Positions 1 to 56,927 of a stretch of DNA of 64,000 bases are shown one piece after another. Made by a program: the position numbers and the translations under genes. This stretch comes from Escherichia phage HEMP5: sequence record OR424388.1. One strand, given 5' to 3'. How positions within the stretch are numbered: position 1 is the first letter of the stretch; each line of letters begins with the position of its first letter. The notes beneath the pieces were generated by a model. The model saw nothing but the letters and a program-made list of their open reading frames with translations. It had not been told where the DNA came from and did no database searches.

Positions 1-1007
1 TTTAGTGCATTGTTCAGTTTAGAACGTTGCTTCGTAAGATTTTTGACTTTTTCTTGAGCTTTTTCTAGCATCTTTTCAGCTTCTAACACTTCATTAGTTG
101 CTTTAACGAGTTCATCATCTACTGCCTTGATAGACTTCTCAATCGCATCCGCGTGCCATTTTTCAACAGGTTTAAAACTCGGATTTTCAACAGGAAGAAA
201 ATTCACTTTATTGAATTTCCATGTATCTTTATTACCTGAACTATACATCCAAAATTTAGGATCGTTTGATGAGTAATTGGATAAATTTAAGATATCTTGC
301 ACTTCCTGCTTTTTCTCTTGCGGGACTTCGTCCTTTCTCAAAAAATCGTATTTAAATGAAACGATCATATCAAGTTCATACGTTGTTGTATGTTCCCAAT
401 TTCGCTCAAAATGAGGTAAAATCTTAGACTGAACCGCGGCAACTACATCCATATACTTAAATGCTTCTGTCAACTGTGATTTAAGGCATTCACAAATTGA
501 AAGAGAATTTTTTGTATTAGGTTTAAAGCTAATTCGTGCAGTTCTGTTATTTTCTTTTAATGGTCTTACTTCCATCTGAAGAGTATAACCATCAAATTTC
601 AGATTCTTTAAGTTAATATCAGAACCTTTTAATCGACTAGCCGTCGACAAAATTTGCTTTAATTGTTTACGGAATAGAGCAATAAATCTCCACTCAATAC
701 GATAATGATTTGGATTGAAAAATCCAGATGATAAATCGACCTTACTCTGACCAACACCTTGAACAAATAGAGGATTTTTATAATCAATAGTTTTACAGAA
801 ATCAGTGAGCTGCTCACGAGCAGTCATTTGTGTAATATACCCCGCTTTACTAAAATGACGTAATAATTCACTGCTATTTAGATATTTAAAGTGAATAGCA
901 CGATTAACTTTATCAGGGTCTAAATTATTTTCACACAAAAATGTCATAACATTACGAGTATCGCTGCCAGTACGAACCATATCTTCAATTTGAGAACGAG
1001 TTTTCAT
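1..1007 (-). CDS. hypothetical protein, partial (N-terminal ~335 aa; 3' end lies beyond window start)
   Basis: ATG at 1007 (minus), open frame to position 1 by manual translation (MKTRSQIEDMVRTGSDTRNVMTFLCENN...); coiled-coil-like C-terminal part; no recognisable family. Confidence 0.5.
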   Translation of the reverse strand, partial: MKTRSQIEDMVRTGSDTRNVMTFLCENNLDPDKVNRAIHFKYLNSSELLRHFSKAGYITQMTAREQLTDFCKTIDYKNPLFVQGVGQSKVDLSSGFFNPNHYRIEWRFIALFRKQLKQILSTASRLKGSDINLKNLKFDGYTLQMEVRPLKENNRTARISFKPNTKNSLSICECLKSQLTEAFKYMDVVAAVQSKILPHFERNWEHTTTYELDMIVSFKYDFLRKDEVPQEKKQEVQDILNLSNYSSNDPKFWMYSSGNKDTWKFNKVNFLPVENPSFKPVEKWHADAIEKSIKAVDDELVKATNEVLEAEKMLEKAQEKVKNLTKQRSKLNNAL

Positions 1008-1015
1008 GGTGTTCC

Positions 1016-1924
1016 TTAAGATTTAAGTAAATCAACAATTTTAATTAACTTTTCACGCTCAGATTTAGCTTTACTACTCAGTCCAGATAGTCTGAAAATT
1101 TCATCATCATATTGTTGAATAGAAATATTCAGCTCTTCAATCTGTTTATTAAAATAATCAATTTGTTCAGAATGTTTTTCGTTACTACGAACTGGTACAG
1201 GTTTTGTAGGCAATTTAGTTGAACTGGATTCATCCGGGCGATAAATTAAAACACAACTTGAACCAATAGGGCATTTTGCACCAGATGAATATTCTAATGT
1301 TCCAGCTTCTTTTAAAACTTCAAAAGCTAAACAGAGATGATGCCCCATATTAACATAATCTGTAGAGCGAGCTCTGATGTAATAATCATCGCCGCGAATA
1401 CTAAATTTAAAGCATTTAAGGTCTTCTGTATTATTGGTCTTAAAAATCATTTGTTTATCTAGACCTTTAGCTAATCGAGCGCCTAATGCTAATAATCGTC
1501 TTTGATTTTCCCACAAATCCGCAATCATTTGATCGAATGATAATTTTGGCATTAGTCGACCATAAAGGTCATATCCTTTATTATAATTACGAAGGATTTC
1601 ACTCGCATTAATACGAGACAATGCTCCAATTTTATTAAGGGCTTTCATAATGCGATTAGATAAACTCATTCCAGATCCGTTTGTTCGCTGCAAATGTTTT
1701 TCTAATCCAAATCCAATATCAACTTTAAACTTATCTAAAATTTCTGCATGAACATCTCTGTCAATAACATTCAAATCCAAAGTTGAGTTAAATCTATGAA
1801 AAAATTTATCTGGCTCTGCACTGCGAAATACAGTCCATTCATTTAATTTTTTATTAACTAAAGATTTAATTACTGCATTGACATTATTAATTACTACTGA
1901 CATATTTTCCTCACTCAATTTCAA
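1016..1924 (-). CDS. hypothetical protein (302 aa)
   Basis: ORF track; start overlaps stop of the upstream gene (1911..2318) in a compact operon. Confidence 0.6.
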   Translation of the reverse strand: MKLSEENMSVVINNVNAVIKSLVNKKLNEWTVFRSAEPDKFFHRFNSTLDLNVIDRDVHAEILDKFKVDIGFGLEKHLQRTNGSGMSLSNRIMKALNKIGALSRINASEILRNYNKGYDLYGRLMPKLSFDQMIADLWENQRRLLALGARLAKGLDKQMIFKTNNTEDLKCFKFSIRGDDYYIRARSTDYVNMGHHLCLAFEVLKEAGTLEYSSGAKCPIGSSCVLIYRPDESSSTKLPTKPVPVRSNEKHSEQIDYFNKQIEELNISIQQYDDEIFRLSGLSSKAKSEREKLIKIVDLLKS

Positions 1925-2318
1925 TTTTACTAAATATACAGAATAAGATGGAACAGACTATATAAGCACCACACACAGATTGAACTAATACCATTCCAAA
2001 GAACCAAACAATATTATCAAACAATGTCTGTTTTACGTCGAAAGGACGTAAACTTACAGTAATATTATCACCTTTTTCTATTGAAGAATACATCTCTGGG
2101 GAAATATATTCACTAAATCTATAACCATCTTTGAGTTCATATACGGCAATAAACGATAAACTAGACCCTTTTCCTTGTGTTCCTGTAATGGTATTAACTA
2201 CAGTAACATCATAATCTTTATAATGCATATAATCATTAATTGCGTAATAACCATATGCAATTACTACACATAAACAACATATCAATAAATTCAATCTTTT
2301 AATTATCAACTGTTTCAT
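1911..2318 (-). CDS. predicted membrane protein (135 aa, N- and C-terminal hydrophobic helices)
   Basis: ORF track; hydrophobic stretches LLICCLCVVIAYGYYAI and IVWFFGMVLVQSVCGAYIVCSILFCIF. Confidence 0.55.
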   Translation of the reverse strand: MKQLIIKRLNLLICCLCVVIAYGYYAINDYMHYKDYDVTVVNTITGTQGKGSSLSFIAVYELKDGYRFSEYISPEMYSSIEKGDNITVSLRPFDVKQTLFDNIVWFFGMVLVQSVCGAYIVCSILFCIFSKIEIE

Positions 2319-2373
2319 AATAATCTCAATTAAAAGGGCTTAGAACCATTATACCATCCTTGGTATAAAGCGG

Positions 2374-2901
2374 TTATGCGAGTACCGTCTTTAACCGTTC
2401 TTCAAACTTCCGAAGAGTATTTTGGCGTTCAGCTCTTTGCTTTTTGTAAGTTTCAATACGCTCTGAAATGAGAGTGTATCGTTCATTTACTGATTCTTTC
2501 ATAAAATCAGGAATTTCACGAGAAGCTTTAATCTCGTCAAATTTATCAATAACAGCTTGCTCTTCAGCAATTAAGTTATCATACATTAAAATATCTTTCT
2601 TGATAAACTCAATATCTTCTTGAGTTACACGAGATAATTTAGATGCTTTATCCTTTTTGTACTGTTCGTTAGTATCACGAGACCAGTGTAATGTACGATT
2701 TTTATTCGTATTTTTGTAAATTTCTACAATACCGATCTCATCGATAATAACGATCCAATTCCAACGGGATTTGTAAATTTGTCCTCCATCAACAGTGATT
2801 TCACCTCCGATTGAGATGTCATTAAAGAACTTGCTTTGCGCTTCAGATTTAAATTTACCATCGTTGTAATTTACTAAGTTGAAAATATCTTTAGCGTTCA
2901 T
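2374..2901 (-). CDS. hypothetical protein (175 aa)
   Basis: ORF track; preceded by early-promoter-like element and GGAGGAACAGAAAATG RBS. Confidence 0.6.
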   Translation of the reverse strand: MNAKDIFNLVNYNDGKFKSEAQSKFFNDISIGGEITVDGGQIYKSRWNWIVIIDEIGIVEIYKNTNKNRTLHWSRDTNEQYKKDKASKLSRVTQEDIEFIKKDILMYDNLIAEEQAVIDKFDEIKASREIPDFMKESVNERYTLISERIETYKKQRAERQNTLRKFEERLKTVLA

Positions 2902-2924
2902 TTTCTGTTCCTCCGTAGTTGATA

Positions 2925-2960
2925 GTTGTATAGTACCACAGAGGAACAGTCTTGTAAACC
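2925..2960 (-). promoter_or_regulatory. T4 early-type promoter (GTTTAC -35, ~17 nt spacer, TACTATAC -10-like element)
   Basis: minus-strand reading GTTTACAAGACTGTTCCTCTGTGGTACTATACAACT directly upstream of CDS 2374..2901. Confidence 0.4.
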
Positions 2961-2961
2961 A

Positions 2962-3276
2962 CTAAAAGAAACTTCTTTCACAATTTTTTCCACTGAACCA
3001 TGCGCTTACCGCTTTCTTAGTCTCAGGAGCAGTGTTATCCATAAACCATTCAAAGGCAGCCTTTTTATGATTCTGGAGGGCTTCTCGGGCTTTAATCTGC
3101 TCACGGTCTATTAACACTAACATATGAGCCTTTCTTGTCACCATGGGCTTCTTATGATTTTTTGAATACTCCCAGTCATTTGTCCATCGCATTGTCGTTG
3201 CGAACTTAAATACTGCTTCTTTAATTTTAGTTTCGTAAATTTCACGAGCCTTTGAGTATAACATCATTACCTCCAT
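2962..3276 (-). CDS. hypothetical protein (104 aa)
   Basis: ORF track. Confidence 0.5.
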   Translation of the reverse strand: MEVMMLYSKAREIYETKIKEAVFKFATTMRWTNDWEYSKNHKKPMVTRKAHMLVLIDREQIKAREALQNHKKAAFEWFMDNTAPETKKAVSAWFSGKNCERSFF

Positions 3277-3365
3277 TCACCAGTTTAATTCTAGTCATCT
3301 TTTTAATGGCAGTCCATATAATCTATTTCTGAACTGCCTTTTTGTCATAGAAGTCCTCTTATGAA

Positions 3366-4334
3366 TTATTTCAGAAGAGTAACCTCAGCAATTTCTTCCC
3401 AACCGTTTTTGTCGGTCATAATAAAGTCAGCAAGATAAAGAGCAGTACGCAGTGAAACATTGCGTAAACGATTAACATTAACTTTCATCCATGATAATGC
3501 TTTATAAGTTTCTTCATCAGAAAGACCGCGCTTTTGCATCATGTCAGTTGAAAGAATAACATCTTCAACCCTGACCATAATTTCTTCATTAGTGTGAACA
3601 CCCAAATCCAAATAAACCGAGCGGGACACTAATGCTTGTAAATGTGGAGCAAGTTTAGTACCACGGTCTAATTCGCGGTCAATGTCAACGTTTGTGATAA
3701 AAACAATCGTTCCTTTAAATTCAAACTCACGCTCAATGCCTTTTTCTTCTAAGTAAGAAGACGCAGTGCTCCAGCAGACTTTACGGGTCTCTCCGGTGTC
3801 CAGAGCAGCTTTCAGAAGATTAAGAATGTCCATATCAGAGAAAACATCCACATCATCAATCAAAAGGACAGAATTCTCTTCACGATTATTCCAAAGCTGT
3901 TCATAAAGACCAATACCAGAGATTTTACCATTAATGCTTTTATATTCAATGTATCCAATATCATTTGCTTTATTTAAAGCTTTATCTAAAGAATACGTTT
4001 TACCAATGCCTGCCGCACCAGAGATAATTAATGAACGAATGTTTCCGTTAATAATACCATTCGTCATCATTCCCATAACATTAAATCTTTTATTAATGCG
4101 GGTTTTCATATCTTCATACGATTCTTTAACTTCTTCAACTTTTACACCATCATATGAAATGTCTGATTTGTAAACCCAAACACCGCGACGTTTACCGTCA
4201 ATTTCAACAAAAACTTTACCATCTCCTTGTGCATCTACTGGAGCATTATCTGGGAACCATTCGCCTAAGAGCTCAAAAGTTCCAGAGATTTCTTTACCGA
4301 AGTAGATACCCTTATTGATAGTTACAGTTTTCAT
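3366..4334 (-). CDS. AAA+/P-loop ATPase (Walker A GAAGIGKT, Walker B VLLIDDVD), ~322 aa
   Basis: ORF track ORF 3366..4478 trimmed to internal ATG at 4334 (MKTVTINKG...) which has a GGAG RBS and sits downstream of an early promoter; the longer form would read through the promoter and terminator hairpin. Confidence 0.65.
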   Translation of the reverse strand: MKTVTINKGIYFGKEISGTFELLGEWFPDNAPVDAQGDGKVFVEIDGKRRGVWVYKSDISYDGVKVEEVKESYEDMKTRINKRFNVMGMMTNGIINGNIRSLIISGAAGIGKTYSLDKALNKANDIGYIEYKSINGKISGIGLYEQLWNNREENSVLLIDDVDVFSDMDILNLLKAALDTGETRKVCWSTASSYLEEKGIEREFEFKGTIVFITNVDIDRELDRGTKLAPHLQALVSRSVYLDLGVHTNEEIMVRVEDVILSTDMMQKRGLSDEETYKALSWMKVNVNRLRNVSLRTALYLADFIMTDKNGWEEIAEVTLLK

Positions 4335-4363
4335 TTTATTCTCCAAATCCGTATCAGTTGATA

Positions 4364-4398
4364 GTTGTATAGTACCATAAAGCTTTATGCTTGTAAAC
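4364..4398 (-). promoter_or_regulatory. T4 early-type promoter
   Basis: minus-strand GTTTACAAGCATAAAGCTTTATGGTACTATACAACTATCAACTG upstream of ATG 4334. Confidence 0.4.
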
Positions 4399-4419
4399 AA
4401 TTTTGTGAAAAAATTTTTG

Positions 4420-4447
4420 AAATAAAAAAGGGAGCCCGAAGGCTCCC
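4420..4447 (-). terminator. rho-independent terminator hairpin (GGGAGCC-TTCG-GGCTCCC followed by T-run on minus strand)
   Basis: perfect inverted repeat 4430..4447 plus A-run on plus strand, immediately 3' of CDS 4450..5463. Confidence 0.6.
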
Positions 4448-4449
4448 TA

Positions 4450-5463
4450 TCATTTATAATAACTTCGGTGGTTTTCAAGATAAACCTGTTCGAGGAAATT
4501 ATTCCAAAAGCTCATATCTACTGTTTTAGGCATACCATTCTTAGAAGCTTCAGTAGATGCTGCTTCTACTTGATCGACCACATCTTCCAAAAACTCTTGA
4601 ACTGTTTTAAATGGATGTTTACCCAACTTCACGTCGAGAATAAATGGAGCATCTTGGAGTGGATAAACCAAGTCACCAGTTTTGTAAATTTCCAATAGTT
4701 GAAGTCCACCACGACAAGCATGACTCAGAGCTTTCCAGTCAATACCTTCATTGGCTTCGGCCTTACGAGCACGTTCACCATATTCAGCATCTAATTTGTT
4801 CAGTGACTGCTTAAGCTCAATAAGAGAAAGCGTTGTCTGATATTTACGACCCAACACTGTGTAGAACGTTTGTGGACCTGTTTTCTCATGATTATGGAAC
4901 ACCCATTCACAGAATTCGTTTTCTGGAAGACGATGCTTAATATCTTCAACTTTAGTGCGACGCTGCTTAATAGAACCATCTTCTTGGTAATCAACCCATT
5001 GCTCAGGGATTTGATTAACTACTTTCAATACATCACGTAATGCAGCCAAACGAGAACCCTTGACACCGTATTTAGAAGCTTGCTTGCGGACATATCCTAA
5101 ATATGATTTCATGTTAGTCGTATAAAAACGAGAACGGTTGTCTTGAATAAACTTCCACACATCAGGCAAATCAGATTTAACCACTAGTTCAGGTGGAGTG
5201 TGAAGCATATCCAACGCTACAGTTTCACCATCTGCCGCTAATTTAAAGAAATACTTAAGACTGTATAGTTCATGGTCAATATCATCTTTAGTGTTTTTAG
5301 ATGATGTGTTGTTAGTGTTTTTACTCATGTGCTCTTTGACATTTCCGATAAGAATATCGCGAGCAGGAGGAACAAAGATTTCTTTAAAATCTACATCAGA
5401 TTCTGGGGTAGAAGTTCCATAAAGATGACTACCAAAATAGCTTTTCATTACTGTTTTCATCAT
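4450..5463 (-). CDS. Pol-beta-superfamily nucleotidyltransferase-fold protein (337 aa)
   Basis: N-terminus YFGSHLYGTSTPESDVDF matches the [GS]-x(9-13)-D-x-[DE] NTase signature, with a candidate third acidic residue in TVALDMLH; rest unrecognised. Confidence 0.6.
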   Translation of the reverse strand: MMKTVMKSYFGSHLYGTSTPESDVDFKEIFVPPARDILIGNVKEHMSKNTNNTSSKNTKDDIDHELYSLKYFFKLAADGETVALDMLHTPPELVVKSDLPDVWKFIQDNRSRFYTTNMKSYLGYVRKQASKYGVKGSRLAALRDVLKVVNQIPEQWVDYQEDGSIKQRRTKVEDIKHRLPENEFCEWVFHNHEKTGPQTFYTVLGRKYQTTLSLIELKQSLNKLDAEYGERARKAEANEGIDWKALSHACRGGLQLLEIYKTGDLVYPLQDAPFILDVKLGKHPFKTVQEFLEDVVDQVEAASTEASKNGMPKTVDMSFWNNFLEQVYLENHRSYYK

Positions 5464-5921
5464 TCAGCCTTATATTCAATAACAGGACATACTTTAGCTT
5501 TACGCGCTTTTAAAAATTCGACGATAATAGATTTCTTGGGTTGAATAGGAGGTAAACCTTTATACGCCCTATCAATATTTTCTACATGTAAAGCATAATC
5601 CTTTTTCCATTTATAATCTTTATATTTTTCATGCAGTTGTGCAGGAATAACAAATGAACCAATAATAAGTAAAATAAGCAAAATGGCAAGTATAAATGCT
5701 GATGGAATAAGAGTCCATAAACTACCAAAAATAAGCCATTTCTGTATGATTTCTGCACAGATAATAGTTAGACCTGCGAGTATAGTACATCCGAAAAAAG
5801 AAACGAAAAATGTAGGGATAACAATAGACCAAAAGTATGCACACAGTGTCTTAGGTCGTTTCCATTCGTCGTTAAACAGTTTGAATAATTTATAGTGCCA
5901 AGAGTTTTCATTAATAATCAT
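5460..5921 (-). CDS. predicted inner-membrane protein (153 aa, multiple TM helices)
   Basis: ORF track; long hydrophobic segments; start/stop overlaps with neighbours. Confidence 0.6.
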   Translation of the reverse strand: MIINENSWHYKLFKLFNDEWKRPKTLCAYFWSIVIPTFFVSFFGCTILAGLTIICAEIIQKWLIFGSLWTLIPSAFILAILLILLIIGSFVIPAQLHEKYKDYKWKKDYALHVENIDRAYKGLPPIQPKKSIIVEFLKARKAKVCPVIEYKAE

Positions 5922-5923
5922 AA

Positions 5924-6445
5924 TTATCCTTTCATTGAAGGTGTAACAGTTGTTAAATACTTAATCATAGCTTCAGCTTCTGATTTTGATAATGAAATTT
6001 CTCCATTGTTTTGACGAATAGAAATAAAATCCGGATGACGGTCACCACCAGCTTTTAAAACACACATATAAGTATCAGTTTCATCTTCAATATCTGAAAT
6101 GATTGAAGCAGTTCCACATGAATGTGGTTTTTGATAAATCAATACAGCTTTTCTTCCACCGTTTGACTGTTCATAAACTTTTAACACATCAAACAAATCG
6201 CTTCTTTTATCAATAGCTAAGATGTTGTTTTCATCTTCAATATTAAATCCTTCGGATACTTCATAAAGTGTCACCCATAAATCACCAATATCAATAACAG
6301 CGTTCACTTTTCCATGACTTTCAAGAGCATTACAAATTTTCTTAATTTCATCATAACTCATTTTAATAATATCATCTCCTTGAATAAGGAAGATGTCATT
6401 TTTAAATTCAACGCGAATTAAACCACTTCCACTTGAAATAAACAT
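5924..6445 (-). CDS. hypothetical protein (173 aa), paralog of next gene
   Basis: ORF track; C-terminal motif SKSEAEAMIKYLTTVTPSM shared with 6452..7009 product (TKDEAIALKTYLDSVIPTM). Confidence 0.6.
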   Translation of the reverse strand: MFISSGSGLIRVEFKNDIFLIQGDDIIKMSYDEIKKICNALESHGKVNAVIDIGDLWVTLYEVSEGFNIEDENNILAIDKRSDLFDVLKVYEQSNGGRKAVLIYQKPHSCGTASIISDIEDETDTYMCVLKAGGDRHPDFISIRQNNGEISLSKSEAEAMIKYLTTVTPSMKG

Positions 6446-6451
6446 ATTTCC

Positions 6452-7009
6452 TCACTTTGAAATCATAGTTGGAATGACAGAATCAAGATAAGTCTTTAGC
6501 GCAATAGCTTCGTCTTTGGTAAATGTGACAATATGCGATCGAAAATCATCAATTTGACGAATAGTTAAGACATCTCCATCTTCATAACATTTTGATACGT
6601 TTAAAACAGTTTCATCATTATGATTGCAAGCGTTAGTAATAATAGCATTGCAATTTTTAAACCATTTTAAACTATGTTTTCTTTCATTAGAATAATAAAA
6701 ATATTTAATCTTATCTATAAAACTGTCCCAATGAATAACTGATAGGCATATTGACTCGCTTTCAATATTAAATCCTGGGCATGAAGAATAAAAATGAATT
6801 TTGTGCTCATCATTGATGCTTACTATTTTATCAGTATAAGGATATTCAATTTGGGTTAAATGAATGATTTCACTAGGCGTAAAATATAGCATATCGTCTT
6901 CTTGTGTCAAACGATACATATTATTTACTTTTTCTATAGCTAATTCACCAAAAAGCGGACTAACTTCTAATACTAATCGTTTCATATTGATTCTCTTCGA
7001 CTCACCCAC
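6452..7009 (-). CDS. hypothetical protein (up to 185 aa; GTG start in track, ATG alternative at 6985)
   Basis: ORF track; paralogous C-terminus to 5924..6445. Confidence 0.55.
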   Translation of the reverse strand: MGESKRINMKRLVLEVSPLFGELAIEKVNNMYRLTQEDDMLYFTPSEIIHLTQIEYPYTDKIVSINDEHKIHFYSSCPGFNIESESICLSVIHWDSFIDKIKYFYYSNERKHSLKWFKNCNAIITNACNHNDETVLNVSKCYEDGDVLTIRQIDDFRSHIVTFTKDEAIALKTYLDSVIPTMISK

Positions 7010-7139
7010 AATTACATACTCCTTTGAATAATATCAATAATGTTGTTCACCAGATTATAAGTAAACATTGGATAATTATATTGAATCATCACATACACAA
7101 CAAACAAAACTTTCATTCTCTTCTCCTTGGCAGTTGACA

Positions 7140-7174
7140 AGATTACTATATCATAACCTTGCCAACTTGTAAAC
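7140..7174 (-). promoter_or_regulatory. T4 early-type promoter-like element
   Basis: minus-strand GTTTACAAGTTGGCAAGGTTATGATATAGTAATC. Confidence 0.3.
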
Positions 7175-7176
7175 CA

Positions 7177-7350
7177 TTAAATGACGTTTTCAATAAAATT
7201 CTGAAGCTTTGTGTGAGCATCAACCATGATTTTCATTTCTTCCTTTGCGAAAGCTGTACCTCTTTCCCTAGCAGAATACTCATAGTCAGAAACTGCATTA
7301 GCATATTCTTCAATTAGCTTCATTAAAAACATCTGCTTTTCAGTTTTCAT
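7177..7350 (-). CDS. small hypothetical protein (57 aa; below ORF-track size cutoff)
   Basis: manual translation MKTEKQMFLMKLIEEYANAVSDYEYSARERGTAFAKEEMKIMVDAHTKLQNFIENVI; start overlaps stop of 7340..7534. Confidence 0.35.
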   Translation of the reverse strand: MKTEKQMFLMKLIEEYANAVSDYEYSARERGTAFAKEEMKIMVDAHTKLQNFIENVI

Positions 7351-7534
7351 TATTCCACCTAATCATTTCAAGATATTGAACTAACTTAGCTTTGGATTTA
7401 TCCAAATCCTTTTTAGCTGCTTCTATACCATCGTATGAGTATCCTTCACAATGCTCAACTGCTAATTGATATGAATCTATTTCAACATCACGTGCTAATT
7501 TAATAATTTTTTCAAACTGTTCACGTGTTAGCAT
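7340..7534 (-). CDS. small hypothetical protein (64 aa)
   Basis: ORF track. Confidence 0.5.
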   Translation of the reverse strand: MLTREQFEKIIKLARDVEIDSYQLAVEHCEGYSYDGIEAAKKDLDKSKAKLVQYLEMIRWNNEN

Positions 7535-7536
7535 AC

Positions 7537-7776
7537 TTAAACTCTCGTATTATGATCGATAATTTCATCAAGAAACATATCTAAAGCTTCTACAGCATTA
7601 TCAACTTTAGCTTCAAATTTTTCAATACCTTTATTTGCAATGCCTGCCGAAAACCAAGCAAAGTCACTAAGTTCCTCATCTGCTTTGCGAATTAAAGCTA
7701 CCAATTCTTTAATTTTATCTGCTTGTTCAATTCTAGCCATTATTCCACCACATATGAAAGAGAGAATATTGCACAC
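7537..7776 (-). CDS. small hypothetical protein (79 aa, or 67 aa from internal Met)
   Basis: ORF track. Confidence 0.45.
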
Positions 7777-7928
7777 GCCATATGAGTTGCAGCTTCATCA
7801 CACATATCATAACGTTTCTTAAGAAGTTCTACAAGTTCTTCACTAGTAACTTCATCCATGTCGACGAAAAAATCACCATTAATGATGACGTAGATATTTC
7901 CTTCTTGATTGAGTGCTTCAATTTTCAT
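7740..7928 (-). CDS. small hypothetical protein (62 aa, start MKIEALNQ)
   Basis: track ORF 7740..7973 trimmed to ATG 7928 with AAAGAGGAGAACATC RBS downstream of early promoter. Confidence 0.45.
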
Positions 7929-7952
7929 GATGTTCTCCTCTTTATCCGATGG

Positions 7953-7986
7953 TTGTATAGTATCACAGCTCAAATTGAAAGTAAAC
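7953..7986 (-). promoter_or_regulatory. T4 early-type promoter
   Basis: minus-strand GTTTACTTTCAATTTGAGCTGTGATACTATACAACC upstream of 7928. Confidence 0.4.
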
Positions 7987-8023
7987 TGGTAAAATGAAAA
8001 AAGTCTCCCGAAGGAGACTAATG

Positions 8024-8410
8024 TTATTCGAGGGAAAGAAGATATTTGCTCTGGTAAAACATCCCAGTAATATCATCTATCGTGCTTTGAATAGCTGGAG
8101 GCATTTCTTTATAAATGCTGTTAGATTGGTCTAGTATGTGATCAATCATTCTAATTGTGTCGGTAGGAAGTTTACTGGCATCTGGAATAGAAGGCGTGTA
8201 TTTTCTACCAGAATACCCCAAATATTGCTCACCAAATTTATCAATCAAATCTGGCAACTCAGAGAAAATAAAATCGTATGCTTTGTGTCTAGCATAACTT
8301 TTAGTTTCAAAATGCGCAGAATGAAAATAAGCTTGTGCAGCCATTAATAAACCTAAGTATTCATCTGCCTTTGAAGGTTTTCCACTTTGTGAAAAGTCGC
8401 TGAATTTCAT
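8024..8410 (-). CDS. hypothetical protein (128 aa), positional equivalent of T4 rI.-1
   Basis: ORF track; immediately downstream (in transcription) of rI. Confidence 0.6.
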
Positions 8411-8700
8411 TCAGTCTCCAATTTAATGTTCATAATTCTAGCGTATGATTGTGCCATCTCCGCGCCTCGTTCTATACATTCAAAATCGGAAGAGCACGGG
8501 TCATTTTTATAAGTCGTTCGCATAAAACTATAGAACTGTTCAGATGATTCTACGCTTTTATTTTCAAAAAGCATATAAACGTGTCTAATACCAGATTCCA
8601 TAAATTTATCAAAATGAGGATCGACATTCGCTTCAATTGGTGGAGATAAAGCAAACGCTAATCCTAGCATGGCAAATAGTGCCGTTGCTTTTAAGGCCAT
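8407..8700 (-). CDS. rI: lysis-inhibition regulator rI (97 aa, N-terminal signal/anchor)
   Basis: MALKATALFAMLGLAFALSPPIEANVDPHFDKFMESG... matches remembered T4 RI; size 97 aa identical. Confidence 0.85.
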   Translation of the reverse strand: MALKATALFAMLGLAFALSPPIEANVDPHFDKFMESGIRHVYMLFENKSVESSEQFYSFMRTTYKNDPCSSDFECIERGAEMAQSYARIMNIKLETE

Positions 8701-8712
8701 AAAGGCCTCCTA

Positions 8713-8925
8713 TCATTTTTGTCCTGTATTTACTTTATGCCGATGCACGGCCTTAACTTTATCAAGGTATTTTTCAAAATTTCGCAATCTAGTATAGTCT
8801 GCCGGAGATTGGTTGAGTGATACTTCTCGACGCAAAGCTGAAATGATATTTCCAACTTCCCTACGAATTTCATCTAATTGAAGAACAGTAAGATTGCGAA
8901 GTTGCTTTTCAGTTAATTGTAGCAT
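8713..8925 (-). CDS. small hypothetical protein (70 aa)
   Basis: ORF track. Confidence 0.5.
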
Positions 8926-8967
8926 ATATACCCCTTTAGTTAGATAAACCTATTTATAACTTTTGCA

Positions 8968-9549
8968 CTAACCGAGCTTTTTAGTTAATTCATTCCAATG
9001 TTTTCTACACAAAGAAACATAAATTTCATCACCAATACAGATTTGATTACCTTCTTTAACTGGTGTTCCATCTTCCATTAATCGAGCTGTCATAATAGCT
9101 TTTTTACCACAATGACAAACTGCCTTTAGTTCAATAAGTTTATCTGCAATCGCCAAAAGTTCTTTAGAACCTTCAAATAATTTTCCAGCGAAATCAGTCC
9201 TTAGCCCATAAGCCATAACAGGAACATTATATGTATCAACAATTCGACTTAATTGATGCACCTGTTCAGTTTTTAAAAACTGAGCTTCATCTACAAATAC
9301 ACAATGAATATCTTTTTGTGCTTCAGCCCATTTATAGAACTCAAAAATATCCATATCATCCGTAATAATATTCGCTTCCTGCTTAATTCCAATGCGAGAA
9401 ACGACTTCACAGACAGAATCGCGAGTATCAATAGCAGGCTTAAGAACTAATACACCCATTCCGCGTTCTTTATAATTATGTGCAGCAGTCAAAAGAGAAG
9501 CAGATTTTCCAGCATTCATTGCTGCGTAAGTAAAAATTAAACTCGCCAT
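8968..9549 (-). CDS. tk: thymidine kinase
   Basis: P-loop NAGKSASLL, VDEAQF, zinc-ribbon Cys pairs CHCGKKA/CRKH typical of TK; 193 aa as in T4. Confidence 0.95.
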   Translation of the reverse strand: MASLIFTYAAMNAGKSASLLTAAHNYKERGMGVLVLKPAIDTRDSVCEVVSRIGIKQEANIITDDMDIFEFYKWAEAQKDIHCVFVDEAQFLKTEQVHQLSRIVDTYNVPVMAYGLRTDFAGKLFEGSKELLAIADKLIELKAVCHCGKKAIMTARLMEDGTPVKEGNQICIGDEIYVSLCRKHWNELTKKLG

Positions 9550-9558
9550 ATCACCTTC

Positions 9559-9744
9559 TTAAAGCATATTCACATAAGCTATTAATTCGTTTTCTTTCTT
9601 ATCAAACCGATCAGCAAATTCTTCCTGGTGTTCGGGAGATAGCGGGCCGTATTCATCATAAAAGGTGTTTGCTTCTGTATGCTCATCTAGAAGTTCATGG
9701 ATAAGCTCAAACAATTTATCTTTTTGTTCTTTACTCAGACTCAT
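9559..9744 (-). CDS. small hypothetical protein (61 aa)
   Basis: ORF track; ATGA start/stop overlap with upstream small ORF. Confidence 0.5.
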   Translation of the reverse strand: MSLSKEQKDKLFELIHELLDEHTEANTFYDEYGPLSPEHQEEFADRFDKKENELIAYVNML

Positions 9745-53994: not shown

Positions 53995-55560
53995 ATGACT
54001 ATCAAAACTAAAGCTGAACTTTTGAACAAATGGAAGCCATTACTGGAAGGTGAAGGTTTACCGGAAATTGCTAATAGCAAACAAGCGATTATCGCTAAAA
54101 TCTTTGAAAACCAGGAAAAAGATTTCCAGACAGCTCCGGAATATAAAGACGAAAAAATTGCTCAGGCATTCGGTTCTTTCTTAACAGAAGCTGAAATCGG
54201 TGGTGACCACGGTTACAATGCTACCAACATCGCTGCAGGTCAGACTTCTGGAGCAGTAACTCAGATTGGCCCAGCTGTTATGGGTATGGTACGTCGTGCT
54301 ATTCCTAACCTGATTGCTTTCGATATTTGTGGTGTTCAGCCAATGAATAGCCCGACTGGCCAGGTATTCGCACTGCGTGCAGTATATGGTAAAGACCCAA
54401 TCGCTGCTGATGCTAAAGAAGCATTCCACCCAATGTATGGTCCAGATGCAATGTTCTCTGGTCAGGGTGCTGCTAAGAAATTCCCAGCTCTGGCTGCTAG
54501 CACACAAACCAAAGTAGGTGATATCTATACTCACTTCTTCCAGGAAACTGGTACTGTATATCTGCAAGCTTCTGCTCAAGTAACAATTAGTTCTACTGCA
54601 GATGATGCAGCTAAATTAGATGCTGAAATTAAGAAACAAATGGAAGCTGGCGCATTGGTAGAAATCGCTGAAGGTATGGCTACTTCTATCGCTGAACTTC
54701 AGGAAGGTTTCAACGGTTCTACCGATAACCCATGGAATGAAATGGGCTTCCGTATCGATAAACAAGTTATCGAAGCTAAATCTCGTCAGCTGAAAGCTGC
54801 TTACTCTATCGAATTAGCACAAGACCTCCGCGCTGTTCACGGTATGGATGCTGATGCTGAACTGTCTGGTATTCTGGCTACCGAAATTATGCTGGAAATC
54901 AACCGCGAAGTTGTTGATTGGATTAACTACTCCGCTCAGGTTGGTAAATCTGGTATGACCCTGACTCCGGGTTCTAAAGCTGGTGTATTTGACTTCCAGG
55001 ACCCAATCGATATTCGTGGTGCTCGCTGGGCAGGTGAATCCTTTAAAGCTCTGTTGTTCCAGATTGACAAAGAAGCAGTTGAAATTGCTCGTCAGACTGG
55101 TCGCGGCGAAGGTAACTTCATTATCGCTTCCCGTAACGTAGTTAACGTTCTGGCTTCAGTTGATACCGGCATTTCTTATGCTGCACAAGGTCTGGCTACT
55201 GGCTTTAACACTGATACTACCAAGTCAGTATTTGCTGGTGTTCTGGGTGGTAAATACCGTGTATATATCGACCAGTATGCTAAACAGGATTATTTCACCG
55301 TAGGTTATAAAGGTCCGAACGAAATGGATGCTGGTATTTACTATGCTCCATATGTAGCTCTGACTCCGCTGCGTGGTTCTGATCCGAAGAACTTCCAACC
55401 GGTAATGGGATTCAAAACTCGTTACGGTATCGGTATCAACCCATTTGCAGAATCCGCTGCTCAGGCTCCGGCTTCTCGCATCCAGAGCGGTATGCCTTCT
55501 ATTCTGAATAGCCTTGGTAAAAACGCTTACTTTAGACGTGTATATGTTAAAGGTATCTAA
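53995..55560 (+). CDS. 23: gp23 major capsid protein (521 aa)
   Basis: MTIKTKAELLNKWKPLLEGEGLPEIANSKQAIIAKIFENQEKDFQTAPEYKDEKIAQAFGSFLTEAEIGGDHGYNATNIAAGQTSGAVTQIGPAVMGMVRRAIPNLIAFDICGVQPM...; high codon bias. Confidence 0.98.
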   Translation: MTIKTKAELLNKWKPLLEGEGLPEIANSKQAIIAKIFENQEKDFQTAPEYKDEKIAQAFGSFLTEAEIGGDHGYNATNIAAGQTSGAVTQIGPAVMGMVRRAIPNLIAFDICGVQPMNSPTGQVFALRAVYGKDPIAADAKEAFHPMYGPDAMFSGQGAAKKFPALAASTQTKVGDIYTHFFQETGTVYLQASAQVTISSTADDAAKLDAEIKKQMEAGALVEIAEGMATSIAELQEGFNGSTDNPWNEMGFRIDKQVIEAKSRQLKAAYSIELAQDLRAVHGMDADAELSGILATEIMLEINREVVDWINYSAQVGKSGMTLTPGSKAGVFDFQDPIDIRGARWAGESFKALLFQIDKEAVEIARQTGRGEGNFIIASRNVVNVLASVDTGISYAAQGLATGFNTDTTKSVFAGVLGGKYRVYIDQYAKQDYFTVGYKGPNEMDAGIYYAPYVALTPLRGSDPKNFQPVMGFKTRYGIGINPFAESAAQAPASRIQSGMPSILNSLGKNAYFRRVYVKGI

Positions 55561-55575
55561 TCTTTGACGATTTAA

Positions 55576-55605
55576 GGGACCTTCGGGTCCCTTTAGTTGT
55601 TTTTA
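55576..55605 (+). terminator. rho-independent terminator after gene 23
   Basis: GGGACCTTCGGGTCCC hairpin then T-rich tract. Confidence 0.7.
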
Positions 55606-55608
55606 TGG

Positions 55609-55616
55609 TATAAATA
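55609..55616 (+). promoter_or_regulatory. T4 late promoter TATAAATA for gene 24
   Basis: exact motif 28 nt upstream of ATG 55644. Confidence 0.6.
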
Positions 55617-55643
55617 AATCATATAAACCAAAAGGAAAGCGCA

Positions 55644-56927
55644 ATGGCTAAAATCAACGAACTTCTGCGCGAATCAACCACAACGAATAGCAACTCAATC
55701 GGTCGCCCAAATCTCGTTGCTTTGACTCGCGCTACCACTAAATTAATATATTCTGACATTGTAGCAACGCAAAGAACTAATCAACCTGTTGCTGCTTTTT
55801 ATGGTATCAAATACCTTAACCCGGATAACGAATTTACATTTAAAACTGGTGCTACTTACGCTGGCGAAGCTGGGTATGTAGACCGAGAACAAATCACAGA
55901 ATTAACAGAAGAGTCTAAATTAACTCTCAATAAAGGCGATTTATTCAAATATAATAATATCGTTTATAAAGTATTAGAAGATACACCATTTGCTGATATT
56001 GAAGAAAGCGATTTAGAATTAGCTCTTCAGATTGCAATCGTTCTTTTAAAGGTTCGTTTATTTTCTGATGCTGCAGTAACAAGCAAATTTGAAAACTCTG
56101 ATAGCGAAATTGCGGATGCTAGATTCCAGATTAATAAATGGCAAACCGCAGTTAAATCTCGTAAACTTAAAACTGGCATCACAGTTGAATTAGCACAAGA
56201 TTTAGAAGCAAACGGATTCGATGCTCCTAATTTCTTGGAAGATTTGCTTGCAACTGAAATGGCGGATGAAATCAATAAAGATATTCTGCAGTCTTTGATT
56301 ACAGTATCAAAACGCTATAAAGTTACAGGAATTACTGATACTGGATTCATTGATTTGAGTTATGCATCTGCACCTGAAGCTGGTCGTTCATTATACCGAA
56401 TGGTGTGTGAAATGGTTTCACATATCCAGAAAGAATCAACTTATACAGCAACGTTCTGTGTTGCTTCAGCTCGTGCCGCTGCGATTCTTGCTGCATCAGG
56501 TTGGTTAAAACATAAACCAGAAGATGACAAATATCTTTCACAAAATGCCTACGGGTTCTTAGCTAATGGTTTACCGCTTTATTGCGATACCAACAGTCCA
56601 TTAGATTATGTAATCGTTGGCGTAGTAGAAAATATTGGTGAAAAAGAAATTGTTGGATCAATTTTCTATGCTCCGTATACAGAAGGTCTTGACTTAGATG
56701 ACCCTGAACATGTAGGTGCATTTAAAGTTGTAGTTGATCCAGAAAGTTTGCAGCCATCTATCGGTTTATTAGTTAGATATGCTTTATCTGCAAATCCTTA
56801 CACTGTAGCAAAAGATGAAAAAGAAGCAAGAGTAATTGATGGTGGAGATATGGATAAAATGGCGGGTCGTTCAGATTTGTCTGTTTTATTAGGTGTTAAG
56901 CTACCAAAAATTATCATTGATGAATAA
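55644..56927 (+). CDS. 24: gp24 capsid vertex protein (427 aa)
   Basis: size/order; paralogous to gp23. Confidence 0.95.
   Translation: MAKINELLRESTTTNSNSIGRPNLVALTRATTKLIYSDIVATQRTNQPVAAFYGIKYLNPDNEFTFKTGATYAGEAGYVDREQITELTEESKLTLNKGDLFKYNNIVYKVLEDTPFADIEESDLELALQIAIVLLKVRLFSDAAVTSKFENSDSEIADARFQINKWQTAVKSRKLKTGITVELAQDLEANGFDAPNFLEDLLATEMADEINKDILQSLITVSKRYKVTGITDTGFIDLSYASAPEAGRSLYRMVCEMVSHIQKESTYTATFCVASARAAAILAASGWLKHKPEDDKYLSQNAYGFLANGLPLYCDTNSPLDYVIVGVVENIGEKEIVGSIFYAPYTEGLDLDDPEHVGAFKVVVDPESLQPSIGLLVRYALSANPYTVAKDEKEARVIDGGDMDKMAGRSDLSVLLGVKLPKIIIDE

Follow-up and report, generated by a model that had tools for sequence, protein, structure and literature searches.

The nrdC.11–nrdC.10 segment

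The window—a 64,000-nucleotide stretch of Escherichia phage HEMP5—includes the nrdC.11–nrdC.10 segment of a T4-type phage (Tequatrovirus). Yersinia phage PYps32T is 100% identical across the region, and coverage reaches 80% or more in 493 phage records. The T4 counterparts of the two ORFs concerned are nrdC.11 and nrdC.10: ordinary genes, already annotated and long catalogued in phage T4, and not a new signalling module. GenBank labels both 'thioredoxin', and we reject these labels because they were carried over from the name of the nrdC gene. Gene order is as in T4: tk, rI, mobD.x, nrdC.11, nrdC.10, then nrdC.9 onward.

nrdC.11 occupies positions 4450..5463 on the minus strand and encodes a protein of 337 aa, or of 336 aa if the second ATG (5460) is used, as in GenBank. 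The ORF list, identity to the T4 gene, Pfam and phrog_388 together make it the orthologue of T4 nrdC.11 and an RlaP-family (PF10127) nucleotidyltransferase of the Pol-beta type. The protein begins MMKTVMKSYFGSHLYGTSTPESDVDF, and is 97% identical to its T4 namesake (AAD42629, NP_049709). The start codon and the stop of the preceding ORF overlap (ATGA), and the two ORFs are translationally coupled. The upstream ORF (5460..5921, minus strand), for a 153-aa predicted membrane protein, sits where T4 has the mobD homing-endonuclease gene, which it replaces; two tandem MobD.1/y05I-like genes are a further difference from T4.

nrdC.10, also on the minus strand, occupies 3366..4334 and encodes an AAA+ ATPase of 322 aa, the orthologue of AAD42628 and NP_049708 in T4. 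Its ATG, at 4334, is preceded by GGAG, and the protein begins MKTVTI, a start common to all NrdC.10 homologues and to the GenBank and T4 annotations. The first-pass annotation rightly took this gene to encode a P-loop/AAA+ ATPase, whose motifs are invariant, but started it wrongly at a TTG at 4478. The resulting 370-aa ORF (3366..4478) is an over-extension: it spans a terminator and a promoter, and the homologues begin at MKTVTI.

The terminator, located by a terminator scan, is intrinsic (4420..4448, minus strand), with an 8-bp G+C-rich stem, a UUCG loop and a U-run. Its hairpin (4448..4429) folds as RNA with a dG of -17.7 kcal/mol (z = -3.67), and is kept in related phages with compensatory changes in the stem. 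Rather than flanking the gene pair, as first proposed, this hairpin lies between nrdC.11 and nrdC.10. The early promoter proposed at the same time survives in the form of a candidate for nrdC.10, a T4-early-type match (4369..4397, minus strand; GTTTACA, 17 nt, TGgTACTAT) that scores 9/12 with TG in the promoter scan and lies 3' of the hairpin, again between the genes. Its -35 element, GTTTACA, is conserved across phages, and the same intergenic terminator and promoter are present in T4.

NrdC.11, a divergent RlaP-family nucleotidyltransferase

Among Pol-beta nucleotidyltransferases, NrdC.11 (~330 aa) belongs to the RlaP family, as a divergent member. Pfam PF10127 (RlaP) matches it with E=3.1e-11 and 43.9 bits (cut-off 23), and phrog_388, 'nucleotidyltransferase', with E=2.7e-138. 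The Pfam match is present in all close homologues and behaves in the bacterial NrdC.11-like proteins of the two loci described below, L140 and L134, as it does in the phage protein. It spans only the N-terminal ~130 residues (7-135), corresponding to profile positions 23-142 of 249; a profile–profile alignment with canonical RlaP likewise covers the nucleotidyltransferase core (E=7.7e-5). At E<=1e-30, the relatives of NrdC.11 fall into 830 clusters built at 50% identity, every one of them full length. The assignment agrees with the literature: a nucleotidyltransferase domain was reported in NrdC.11 in 2006, and a preprint of December 2025 has since placed the T4 protein in the RlaP family, in cluster 5 of a PF10127 similarity network (bioRxiv 10.64898/2025.12.29.696909). 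The first-pass remark that no assigned function was known of for such a gene pair in T-even phages holds for experiments in T4 and not for domain assignments, which are published.

The catalytic residues are intact. Among 40 diverse homologues with 33-53% identity to the query, the residues of the core motif that runs from G11-S12 through D23-x-D25, FGSHLYGTSTPESDVD (5389..5433, minus strand), are invariant, and the motif aligns with ESGSRAWGFPSxDSDYD of canonical RlaP. The Pol-beta motif recognized at first pass in this product is therefore no coincidence, since RlaP matches above threshold and the motif residues do not vary. D61 and D63, in D61-I-D63 (KDDIDHE; 5275..5283, minus strand), are invariant in the 40 as well. 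Because D63 aligns with D82, an invariant Asp of canonical RlaP, it is likely to be the third catalytic carboxylate, and has a claim no weaker than that of D85. The latter, in TVALDMLH (5209..5211, minus strand), is the residue put forward originally. It is nearly invariant (at least 90% conserved in the 40), and the canonical RlaP residue aligned with it, E104, is invariant; D63 is fully invariant.

NrdC.11 and canonical RlaP (cluster 1a of the network) share, then, the Pol-beta core—GS, DxD, the third Asp and a further acidic residue (D85/E104)—and both exceed the gathering score of the Pfam model and are linked to RNA-repair operons. Beyond the core they differ. NrdC.11 is ~70 residues longer, and has, unlike canonical RlaP, an invariant KNTxDDxD insert and a variable, beta-containing insert of ~70 aa. 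Over its C-terminal ~200 residues, no significant alignment with canonical RlaP is obtained: for the C-terminal halves, hhalign gives E=0.058 and pairs K244xxxH248xxR251 with K161xxxY165xxR168, and two alternative registers are possible. In the PfRlaP crystal structure, a C-terminal helical domain forms the substrate cleft, and the last helix packs on the nucleotidyltransferase domain. The C-terminus of NrdC.11 is predicted to be helical; an AlphaFold2 model built from 27 sequences at 77-98% identity is unusable, with a pLDDT of 59, and below 50 in the N-terminal nucleotidyltransferase domain. Searches by sequence of a copy of the PDB that holds no PF10127 structure found nothing meaningful for NrdC.11, for its profile, or for the canonical RlaP profile.

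Other Pol-beta families had been suggested as relatives—cGAS/DncV-like, MenT/AbiEii-like or minimal nucleotidyltransferases—and these comparisons do not hold up. RlaP alone exceeds its threshold in Pfam (NTP_transf_2 reaches E=0.093 and 13.6 bits, cut-off 21), MntA scores 13.2 bits against a cut-off of 60 in NCBIfam, and no PADLOC defence model matches. We reject identity as a CD-NTase (cGAS/DncV-like, SMODS), for which there is no Pfam, NCBIfam or PADLOC match and whose CBASS context is unrelated to the phage and bacterial neighbours of NrdC.11. Identity as MenT/AbiEii or MNT/MntA we reject also; no match is found at the family level, and no HEPN or AbiEi gene is found nearby. CD-NTases, MenT/AbiEii toxins and MNT/MntA antitoxins have in common with NrdC.11 only the generic Pol-beta signature, G[GS]...DxD, and their genomic partners are different.

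RNA repair and the NrdC.11-like clade

What RlaP enzymes do has been established for two of them, PfRlaP and PaRlaP, which add one or two NMPs to the 3'-OH of RNA without a template (bioRxiv 10.64898/2025.12.29.696909). According to the same study, they do not modify DNA or protein, they prefer mimics of cleaved tRNA, and they partly restore the aminoacylation of a tRNA missing one anticodon-loop nucleotide. Addition to 3' ends was shown there for these two proteins only; both belong to cluster 1a, whereas T4 NrdC.11, in cluster 5, is described as of 'unknown function'. The canonical RlaP of Pseudomonas fluorescens and P. aeruginosa is encoded between rtcB and rtcA.

Bacterial relatives of NrdC.11 keep similar company. 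Of 80 loci in bacteria where an NrdC.11-like gene is present (31-53% identity), 36 have hallmarks of RNA repair within 8 kb: canonical RlaP in 29, RtcB in 10, and Ro60/TROVE and a Pnkp-type kinase-phosphatase(-ligase) in seven each. Locus L140 is arranged Hen1, ankyrin, Pnkp, NrdC.11-like, canonical RlaP, and L134 is arranged Ro60, NrdC.11-like, RlaP, RtcB; the NrdC.11-like gene in these RNA-repair operons is usually directly upstream of that for canonical RlaP. In the phage itself there is no RNA ligase close by, and RtcB occurs within 10 kb in only one of 78 viral loci.

Taken together, the chemistry of the family and the bacterial genomic company of the clade make nucleotide addition the most likely activity of NrdC.11. 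RNA is inferred to be the substrate of the clade, and counter-defence to be its role in infection; the original suggestion that the gene takes part in conflict with host immunity fares well, as probable. Genes for Pnkp, Rnl1 and Rnl2 lie elsewhere on the T4 genome, and it was the Pnkp/Rnl1 pathway of this phage that provided the founding example of counter-defence by RNA repair. Host nucleases of the RloC type are thought to defeat this repair by removing a nucleotide. On balance we favor the view that nrdC.11 is an accessory of T4 tRNA repair that restores RNA ends. NrdC.11 would add one or a few nucleotides, untemplated, at the 3'-OH of RNAs that have been broken, chiefly of tRNA halves, and the phage Pnkp (healing) and RNA ligases (sealing) could then restore the tRNA that an RloC-type host anticodon nuclease had robbed of a nucleotide. 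That phage RlaP replaces nucleotides lost to RloC-type nucleases before ligation has been predicted already (PMC7824862, citing Burroughs and Aravind 2016).

NrdC.11 might instead be an active nucleotidyltransferase whose substrate is something other than broken tRNA—a protein, in the manner of MntA on HEPN toxins, a small molecule, or the intact 3' ends of RNAs such as host tRNAs or mRNA tails—and whose purpose is other than repair. The divergence of its C-terminal two thirds from canonical RlaP is consistent with this, as is the presence of canonical RlaP alongside in 29 of the 80 bacterial loci, suggestive of an activity of its own for NrdC.11. Against it, the operon partners Pnkp, Hen1, RtcB and Ro60 all act on RNA ends, and canonical RlaP modifies neither proteins nor DNA; we consider it unlikely.

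In bacteria, the NrdC.11-like gene accompanies canonical RlaP rather than replacing it, which points to two activities that differ and are not redundant, and so the canonical addition of one or two nucleotides may not carry over exactly to NrdC.11. A bolder reading, which we rate as a distinctly long shot, is that the ~330-aa clade is a second, functionally distinct RNA-end nucleotidyltransferase, working in bacteria in tandem with canonical RlaP in Pnkp/Hen1 and RtcB/Ro60 operons, and that T4-type phages retained this clade alone, dedicated to countering anticodon nucleases that excise nucleotides. Its specificity for nucleotide or end might differ, for example, or it might perform templated or anticodon-specific fill-in. 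In a weaker form of this reading, the NrdC.10 ATPase would have been added as a phage-specific helper.

NrdC.10 and the setting of the two genes

NrdC.10 belongs to the AAA+ superfamily: it has an alpha/beta P-loop core, Walker A and B motifs, sensor 1, an arginine finger and a C-terminal helical lid. A beta-rich domain (residues 1-62) and a linker helix precede the AAA+ core, which carries an insertion before sensor 1. On the minus strand, Walker A (GAAGIGKT, residues 106-113) maps to 3996..4019, with G106, G109, G111 and K112 invariant, and Walker B (VLLIDD, residues 156-161) to 3852..3869, with D160 and D161 invariant. The segment from N215 of sensor 1 to R238, the arginine of ALVSRS, maps to 3621..3692 on the same strand; both residues are invariant, their roles are presumptive, and in an alignment with a MoxR-type AAA_5 protein R238 falls on the ALINR motif. 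Identity to the MCM, MoxR/CbbQ/NorQ, NtrC-type, dynein (pre-sensor-1-insert) and clamp-loader/initiator types is only 9-18%, and no AAA+ clade is clearly favored (MCM 12.6, MoxR 11.4, RFC1 10.6, Cdc6 10.5). Unlike those groups, NrdC.10 has a unique N-terminal beta domain and a Walker B that ends in DD, not DE. A sequence search of the PDB with NrdC.10 matched only the P-loops of Cdc6 and mS29, at E>0.1, and the family (phrog_1250) is restricted to phages and has no assigned function.

The proposal that the two genes form a module fails: nrdC.11 and nrdC.10 are not a co-transcribed pair, for a terminator and a promoter separate them and their phyletic patterns are independent. Of 75 related phage loci, only 38 have nrdC.10 in the vicinity of nrdC.11 and the other 37 lack it, insertions of up to 2.3 kb part the two in some loci, and each is found without the other. 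Counts of the two by host genus run in opposite directions, with 286 versus 149 in Klebsiella phages and 59 versus 121 in Vibrio phages. Lone NrdC.10 homologues in other phages adjoin either genes for DNA polymerase, exonuclease and helicase or genes for ribonucleotide reductase and topoisomerase. NrdC.10 is, rather, an AAA+ ATPase specific to phages, with a promoter candidate of its own; its synteny is kept in T4-like phages, but it has no obligate tie to the nucleotidyltransferase.

The two proteins might cooperate all the same, the ATPase remodelling an RNA or ribonucleoprotein substrate, such as a ribosome-bound cleaved tRNA, or delivering it to the nucleotidyltransferase. nrdC.10 is downstream and on the same strand in all 38 loci that have both genes within 10 kb, and a MoxR-type AAA_5 ATPase gene occurs in three of the 80 bacterial NrdC.11-like loci. 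The intervening terminator, promoter and insertions, the loci that do without nrdC.10, the discordant host ranges, the association of lone homologues with replication genes or with those for ribonucleotide reductase and topoisomerase, and the presence of an NrdC.10 relative in none of the 80 bacterial loci all speak against this, and we find it quite improbable. A MoxR-type link between NrdC.10 and the bacterial RNA-repair operons, considered separately, we reject: AAA_5 is found in only those three loci, and a NrdC.10 relative in none.

nrdC.11 and nrdC.10 are both dispensable on laboratory hosts. The nrdC.11–mobD.3 segment can be deleted from T4 (PMC9825161), and fitness on a laboratory host was unimpaired when either gene was knocked down by CRISPRi-ART (PMC11879866 supplement). 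The accessory early region around nrdC.11 holds anti-defence genes, among them nrdC.1, which inhibits Septu. This dispensability, this location, and a Pol-beta fold with its catalytic residues intact would also suit the first-pass annotation's suggestion that NrdC.11 makes, modifies or sequesters signalling nucleotides (cGAS/DncV-like, anti-CBASS/Thoeris/Pycsar) as a two-gene module with the ATPase, but we dismiss it as very improbable indeed, given that NrdC.11 has no CD-NTase/SMODS, MenT/AbiEii or PADLOC match, that RlaP, the sole family above threshold, extends RNA 3' ends by one or two NMPs and does not synthesize or destroy signalling nucleotides, that the bacterial neighbours are RNA-repair enzymes and not effectors or sensors of nucleotide signalling, and that the pair is not kept as a unit.

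The idea that NrdC.11 restores nucleotides is already in print (Burroughs and Aravind 2016, by way of PMC7824862; Carruthers et al. 2025), and the genes entered the catalogue with the sequencing of the T4 genome, so the present finding adds no new object. What our analysis does is to confirm the assignment, to show that the signalling-module reading fails, and to document the clade in bacterial RNA-repair operons beside canonical RlaP. Should NrdC.11 indeed restore the excised nucleotide, the phage Pnkp/Rnl1 pathway would gain in it the third step that it has lacked.

The family and active site of NrdC.11

The N-terminal nucleotidyltransferase motif that the first-pass annotation reported in NrdC.11, the 337-aa product of 4450..5463 (minus strand), is genuine and not a chance resemblance. 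The protein matches the Pfam family PF10127 (RlaP, 'RNA repair pathway DNA polymerase beta family') (E=3.1e-11; 43.9 bits, gathering score 23), it matches PHROG 388 ('nucleotidyltransferase') over its full length, and the motif residues do not vary. Among 40 aligned cluster representatives, just 33–53% identical to the query, every sequence keeps G11, S12, S22, D23, D25, N57, D61 and D63, and nearly all keep D85. D85, the proposed third acidic residue, is conserved, but in profile–profile alignment it pairs with an invariant Glu of canonical RlaP (proteins of the Pseudomonas RlaP type), whose invariant third Asp is matched instead by D63. Alignment of the two groups is confined to the nucleotidyltransferase core, Pfam profile positions 23–142 (hhalign of the core: ~90 columns, E=7.7e-5); the C-terminal halves align below significance (E=0.058). 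No structure was found for PF10127 members in the PDB sequence copy searched. The Pfam family matched is RlaP, and comparison with the cGAS/DncV or MenT/AbiEii families is unsupported.

Among the GenBank records of T4-like genomes that match 3300..5600, the 'thioredoxin' label is common on nrdC.1 to nrdC.11, the nucleotidyltransferase and the AAA+ ATPase included (e.g. MT515753, OZ035849, MW749000), and one GenBank record names the nucleotidyltransferase 'HNH homing endonuclease'. These labels are carried over from gene names; the sequences lend them no support.

Gene order and transcription

Every ORF of 1..9600 lies on the minus strand. From tk (8968..9549) the order runs through rI.1, rI and mobD.x genes to two tandem ORFs (6452..7009 and 5924..6445), a 153-aa predicted multi-pass membrane protein (5460..5921), nrdC.11, nrdC.10 and an nrdC.9-like ORF (2962..3276; Pfam DUF7203, E=2.6e-15), with more genes beyond. 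The tandem ORFs are paralogues of the MobD.1 type, each matching both T4_y05I_N and T4_y05I_C in Pfam ('y05I-like putative transcription factor'); the corresponding place in T4 holds just one gene, mobD.1. The membrane protein, which has no significant Pfam match, occupies the slot directly upstream of nrdC.11 that is held in T4 by the mobD homing-endonuclease gene. By megablast (query 3300..5600), Yersinia phages PYps32T and PYps47T are 100% identical, and a further 493 phage records, nearly all Tequatrovirus, have at least 80% query coverage. T4 counterparts, found also in annotated relatives, lie at T4 55435..56445 (nrdC.11) and 54343..55320 (nrdC.10).

The start of nrdC.11 overlaps the stop codon of the membrane-protein ORF (ATGA). 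Just past its own stop lies a hairpin, AGGGAGCC-UUCG-GGCUCCCU and then a U-run (4448..4420; dG -17.7 kcal/mol, z = -3.67 against shuffles), the stem of which shows compensatory changes in related phages (AAGGAACC with GGTTCCTT; GGCC with GGCC). Thirty bases further along, GTTTACA, 17 nt and TGgTACTAT (4397..4369) match the T4 early-promoter pattern, with a -35 element conserved in related phages. The hairpin does not flank the gene pair, as had been thought, but separates its members. From the sequence, we infer that nrdC.10 has a promoter of its own and that most nrdC.11 transcripts would stop before reaching it. Another promoter-like site, at 2958..2930 (TTTACA, 17 nt, TACTAT with TG), suggests that the accessory block is made up of many short early units, each separately promoted.

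The AAA+ ATPase and the gene pair

That nrdC.10 encodes an AAA+ ATPase is borne out by a confident AlphaFold2 model (pLDDT 89.5) and by motifs invariant among homologues: Walker A, Walker B, sensor-1 Asn215, Arg238 and Arg296. The 370-aa ORF starting at TTG is an over-extension; all homologues and annotations begin MKTVTI, that is, at ATG 4334, preceded by GGAG, giving a 322-aa product that ends at 3366. With the ATPase start and the hairpin position corrected, the first-pass observation is sound.

A two-gene module is not supported. We examined 78 IMG/VR loci with a NrdC.11 relative and flanks of up to 10 kb; 75 of them include 5 kb or more of downstream sequence, and these were counted. A NrdC.10 relative is present in 38 and absent from 37; in all 38 it follows the NrdC.11 relative on the same strand, ~0 to 2.3 kb away. 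Across the phage collection 1564 records contain NrdC.11 and 1312 contain NrdC.10, with opposite imbalances by host genus (Klebsiella, 286 versus 149; Vibrio, 59 versus 121). NrdC.10 relatives also occur alone, between exonuclease and DNA polymerase genes in Roseobacter phage RDJL6 and between ribonucleotide reductase and topoisomerase genes in Vibrio phage V05, neither with a nucleotidyltransferase gene within 6 kb. None accompanies the NrdC.11-like gene in 80 bacterial loci. The adjacency is therefore T4-backbone synteny, and not a conserved module.

RNA repair and the likely role of NrdC.11

The likely function of NrdC.11 is drawn chiefly from its family and genomic context, which provide the decisive evidence. 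Bacterial chromosomes encode NrdC.11-type proteins of ~330 aa, 31–53% identical, and 36 of the 80 loci have an RNA-repair hallmark within 8 kb: canonical full-length RlaP in 29, RtcB in 10, Ro60/TROVE in 7 and Pnkp-type kinase-phosphatase(-ligase) in 7. RlaP is mostly the next gene, ~0–60 nt downstream on the same strand (loci L121, L127, L130, L134-L136, L140, L143, L146, L157 and others have both), and the two-nucleotidyltransferase tandem sits inside Pnkp/Hen1 or RtcB/Ro60 operons: Hen1, ankyrin, Pnkp, NrdC.11-like, RlaP in Asticcacaulis, for example, and Ro60, NrdC.11-like, RlaP, RtcB in Rhodospirillales. These neighbours support RNA ends as the probable substrate of the NrdC.11-like clade and, because canonical RlaP so often adjoins, suggest that the two are not redundant.

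Some bacteria-labelled assemblies contain T4-like phage sequence (L084, a 178-kb contig of Flagellimonas marina, NZ_JBHSCL010000010; L083; proteins P0126 and P0205), among them a fragment of NrdC.10 that is 100% identical and is attributed to Enterococcus faecalis. Such sequences probably represent phage contigs or contamination, and not genes of bacteria.

The two genes, their folds and the RNA-repair hypothesis are already in the literature. In 2006, nrdC.11 was assigned to COG3541 (nucleotidyltransferase) and nrdC.10 an AAA motif (PMC1524935). A passage in PMC7824862, citing Burroughs and Aravind 2016, derives the name RlaP from linkage to RNA ligases, and relates the prediction that phage RlaP replaces nucleotides removed by RloC-type nucleases ahead of ligation. 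According to a preprint of December 2025, two Pseudomonas RlaPs use Mn2+ to extend RNA from its 3'-OH end by one or two NMPs, preferring cleaved-tRNA mimics and accepting neither DNA nor protein, and partially rescue aminoacylation of a tRNA lacking one loop nucleotide; the same preprint places T4 NrdC.11 in PF10127, similarity-network cluster 5 (bioRxiv 10.64898/2025.12.29.696909).

The nucleotide-signalling module first proposed falls away, but an accessory enzyme directed against host immunity remains plausible, by way of RNA repair. Both nrdC.11 and nrdC.10 of T4 are dispensable in laboratory hosts, which fits a conditional counter-defence role without proving it. In the same accessory block of T4, nrdC.1 is reported to inhibit the Septu defence system (HIDEN-SEQ, 2025 preprint, 10.1101/2025.11.20.689424), and so at least one neighbour of nrdC.11 and nrdC.10 is a proven anti-defence factor.
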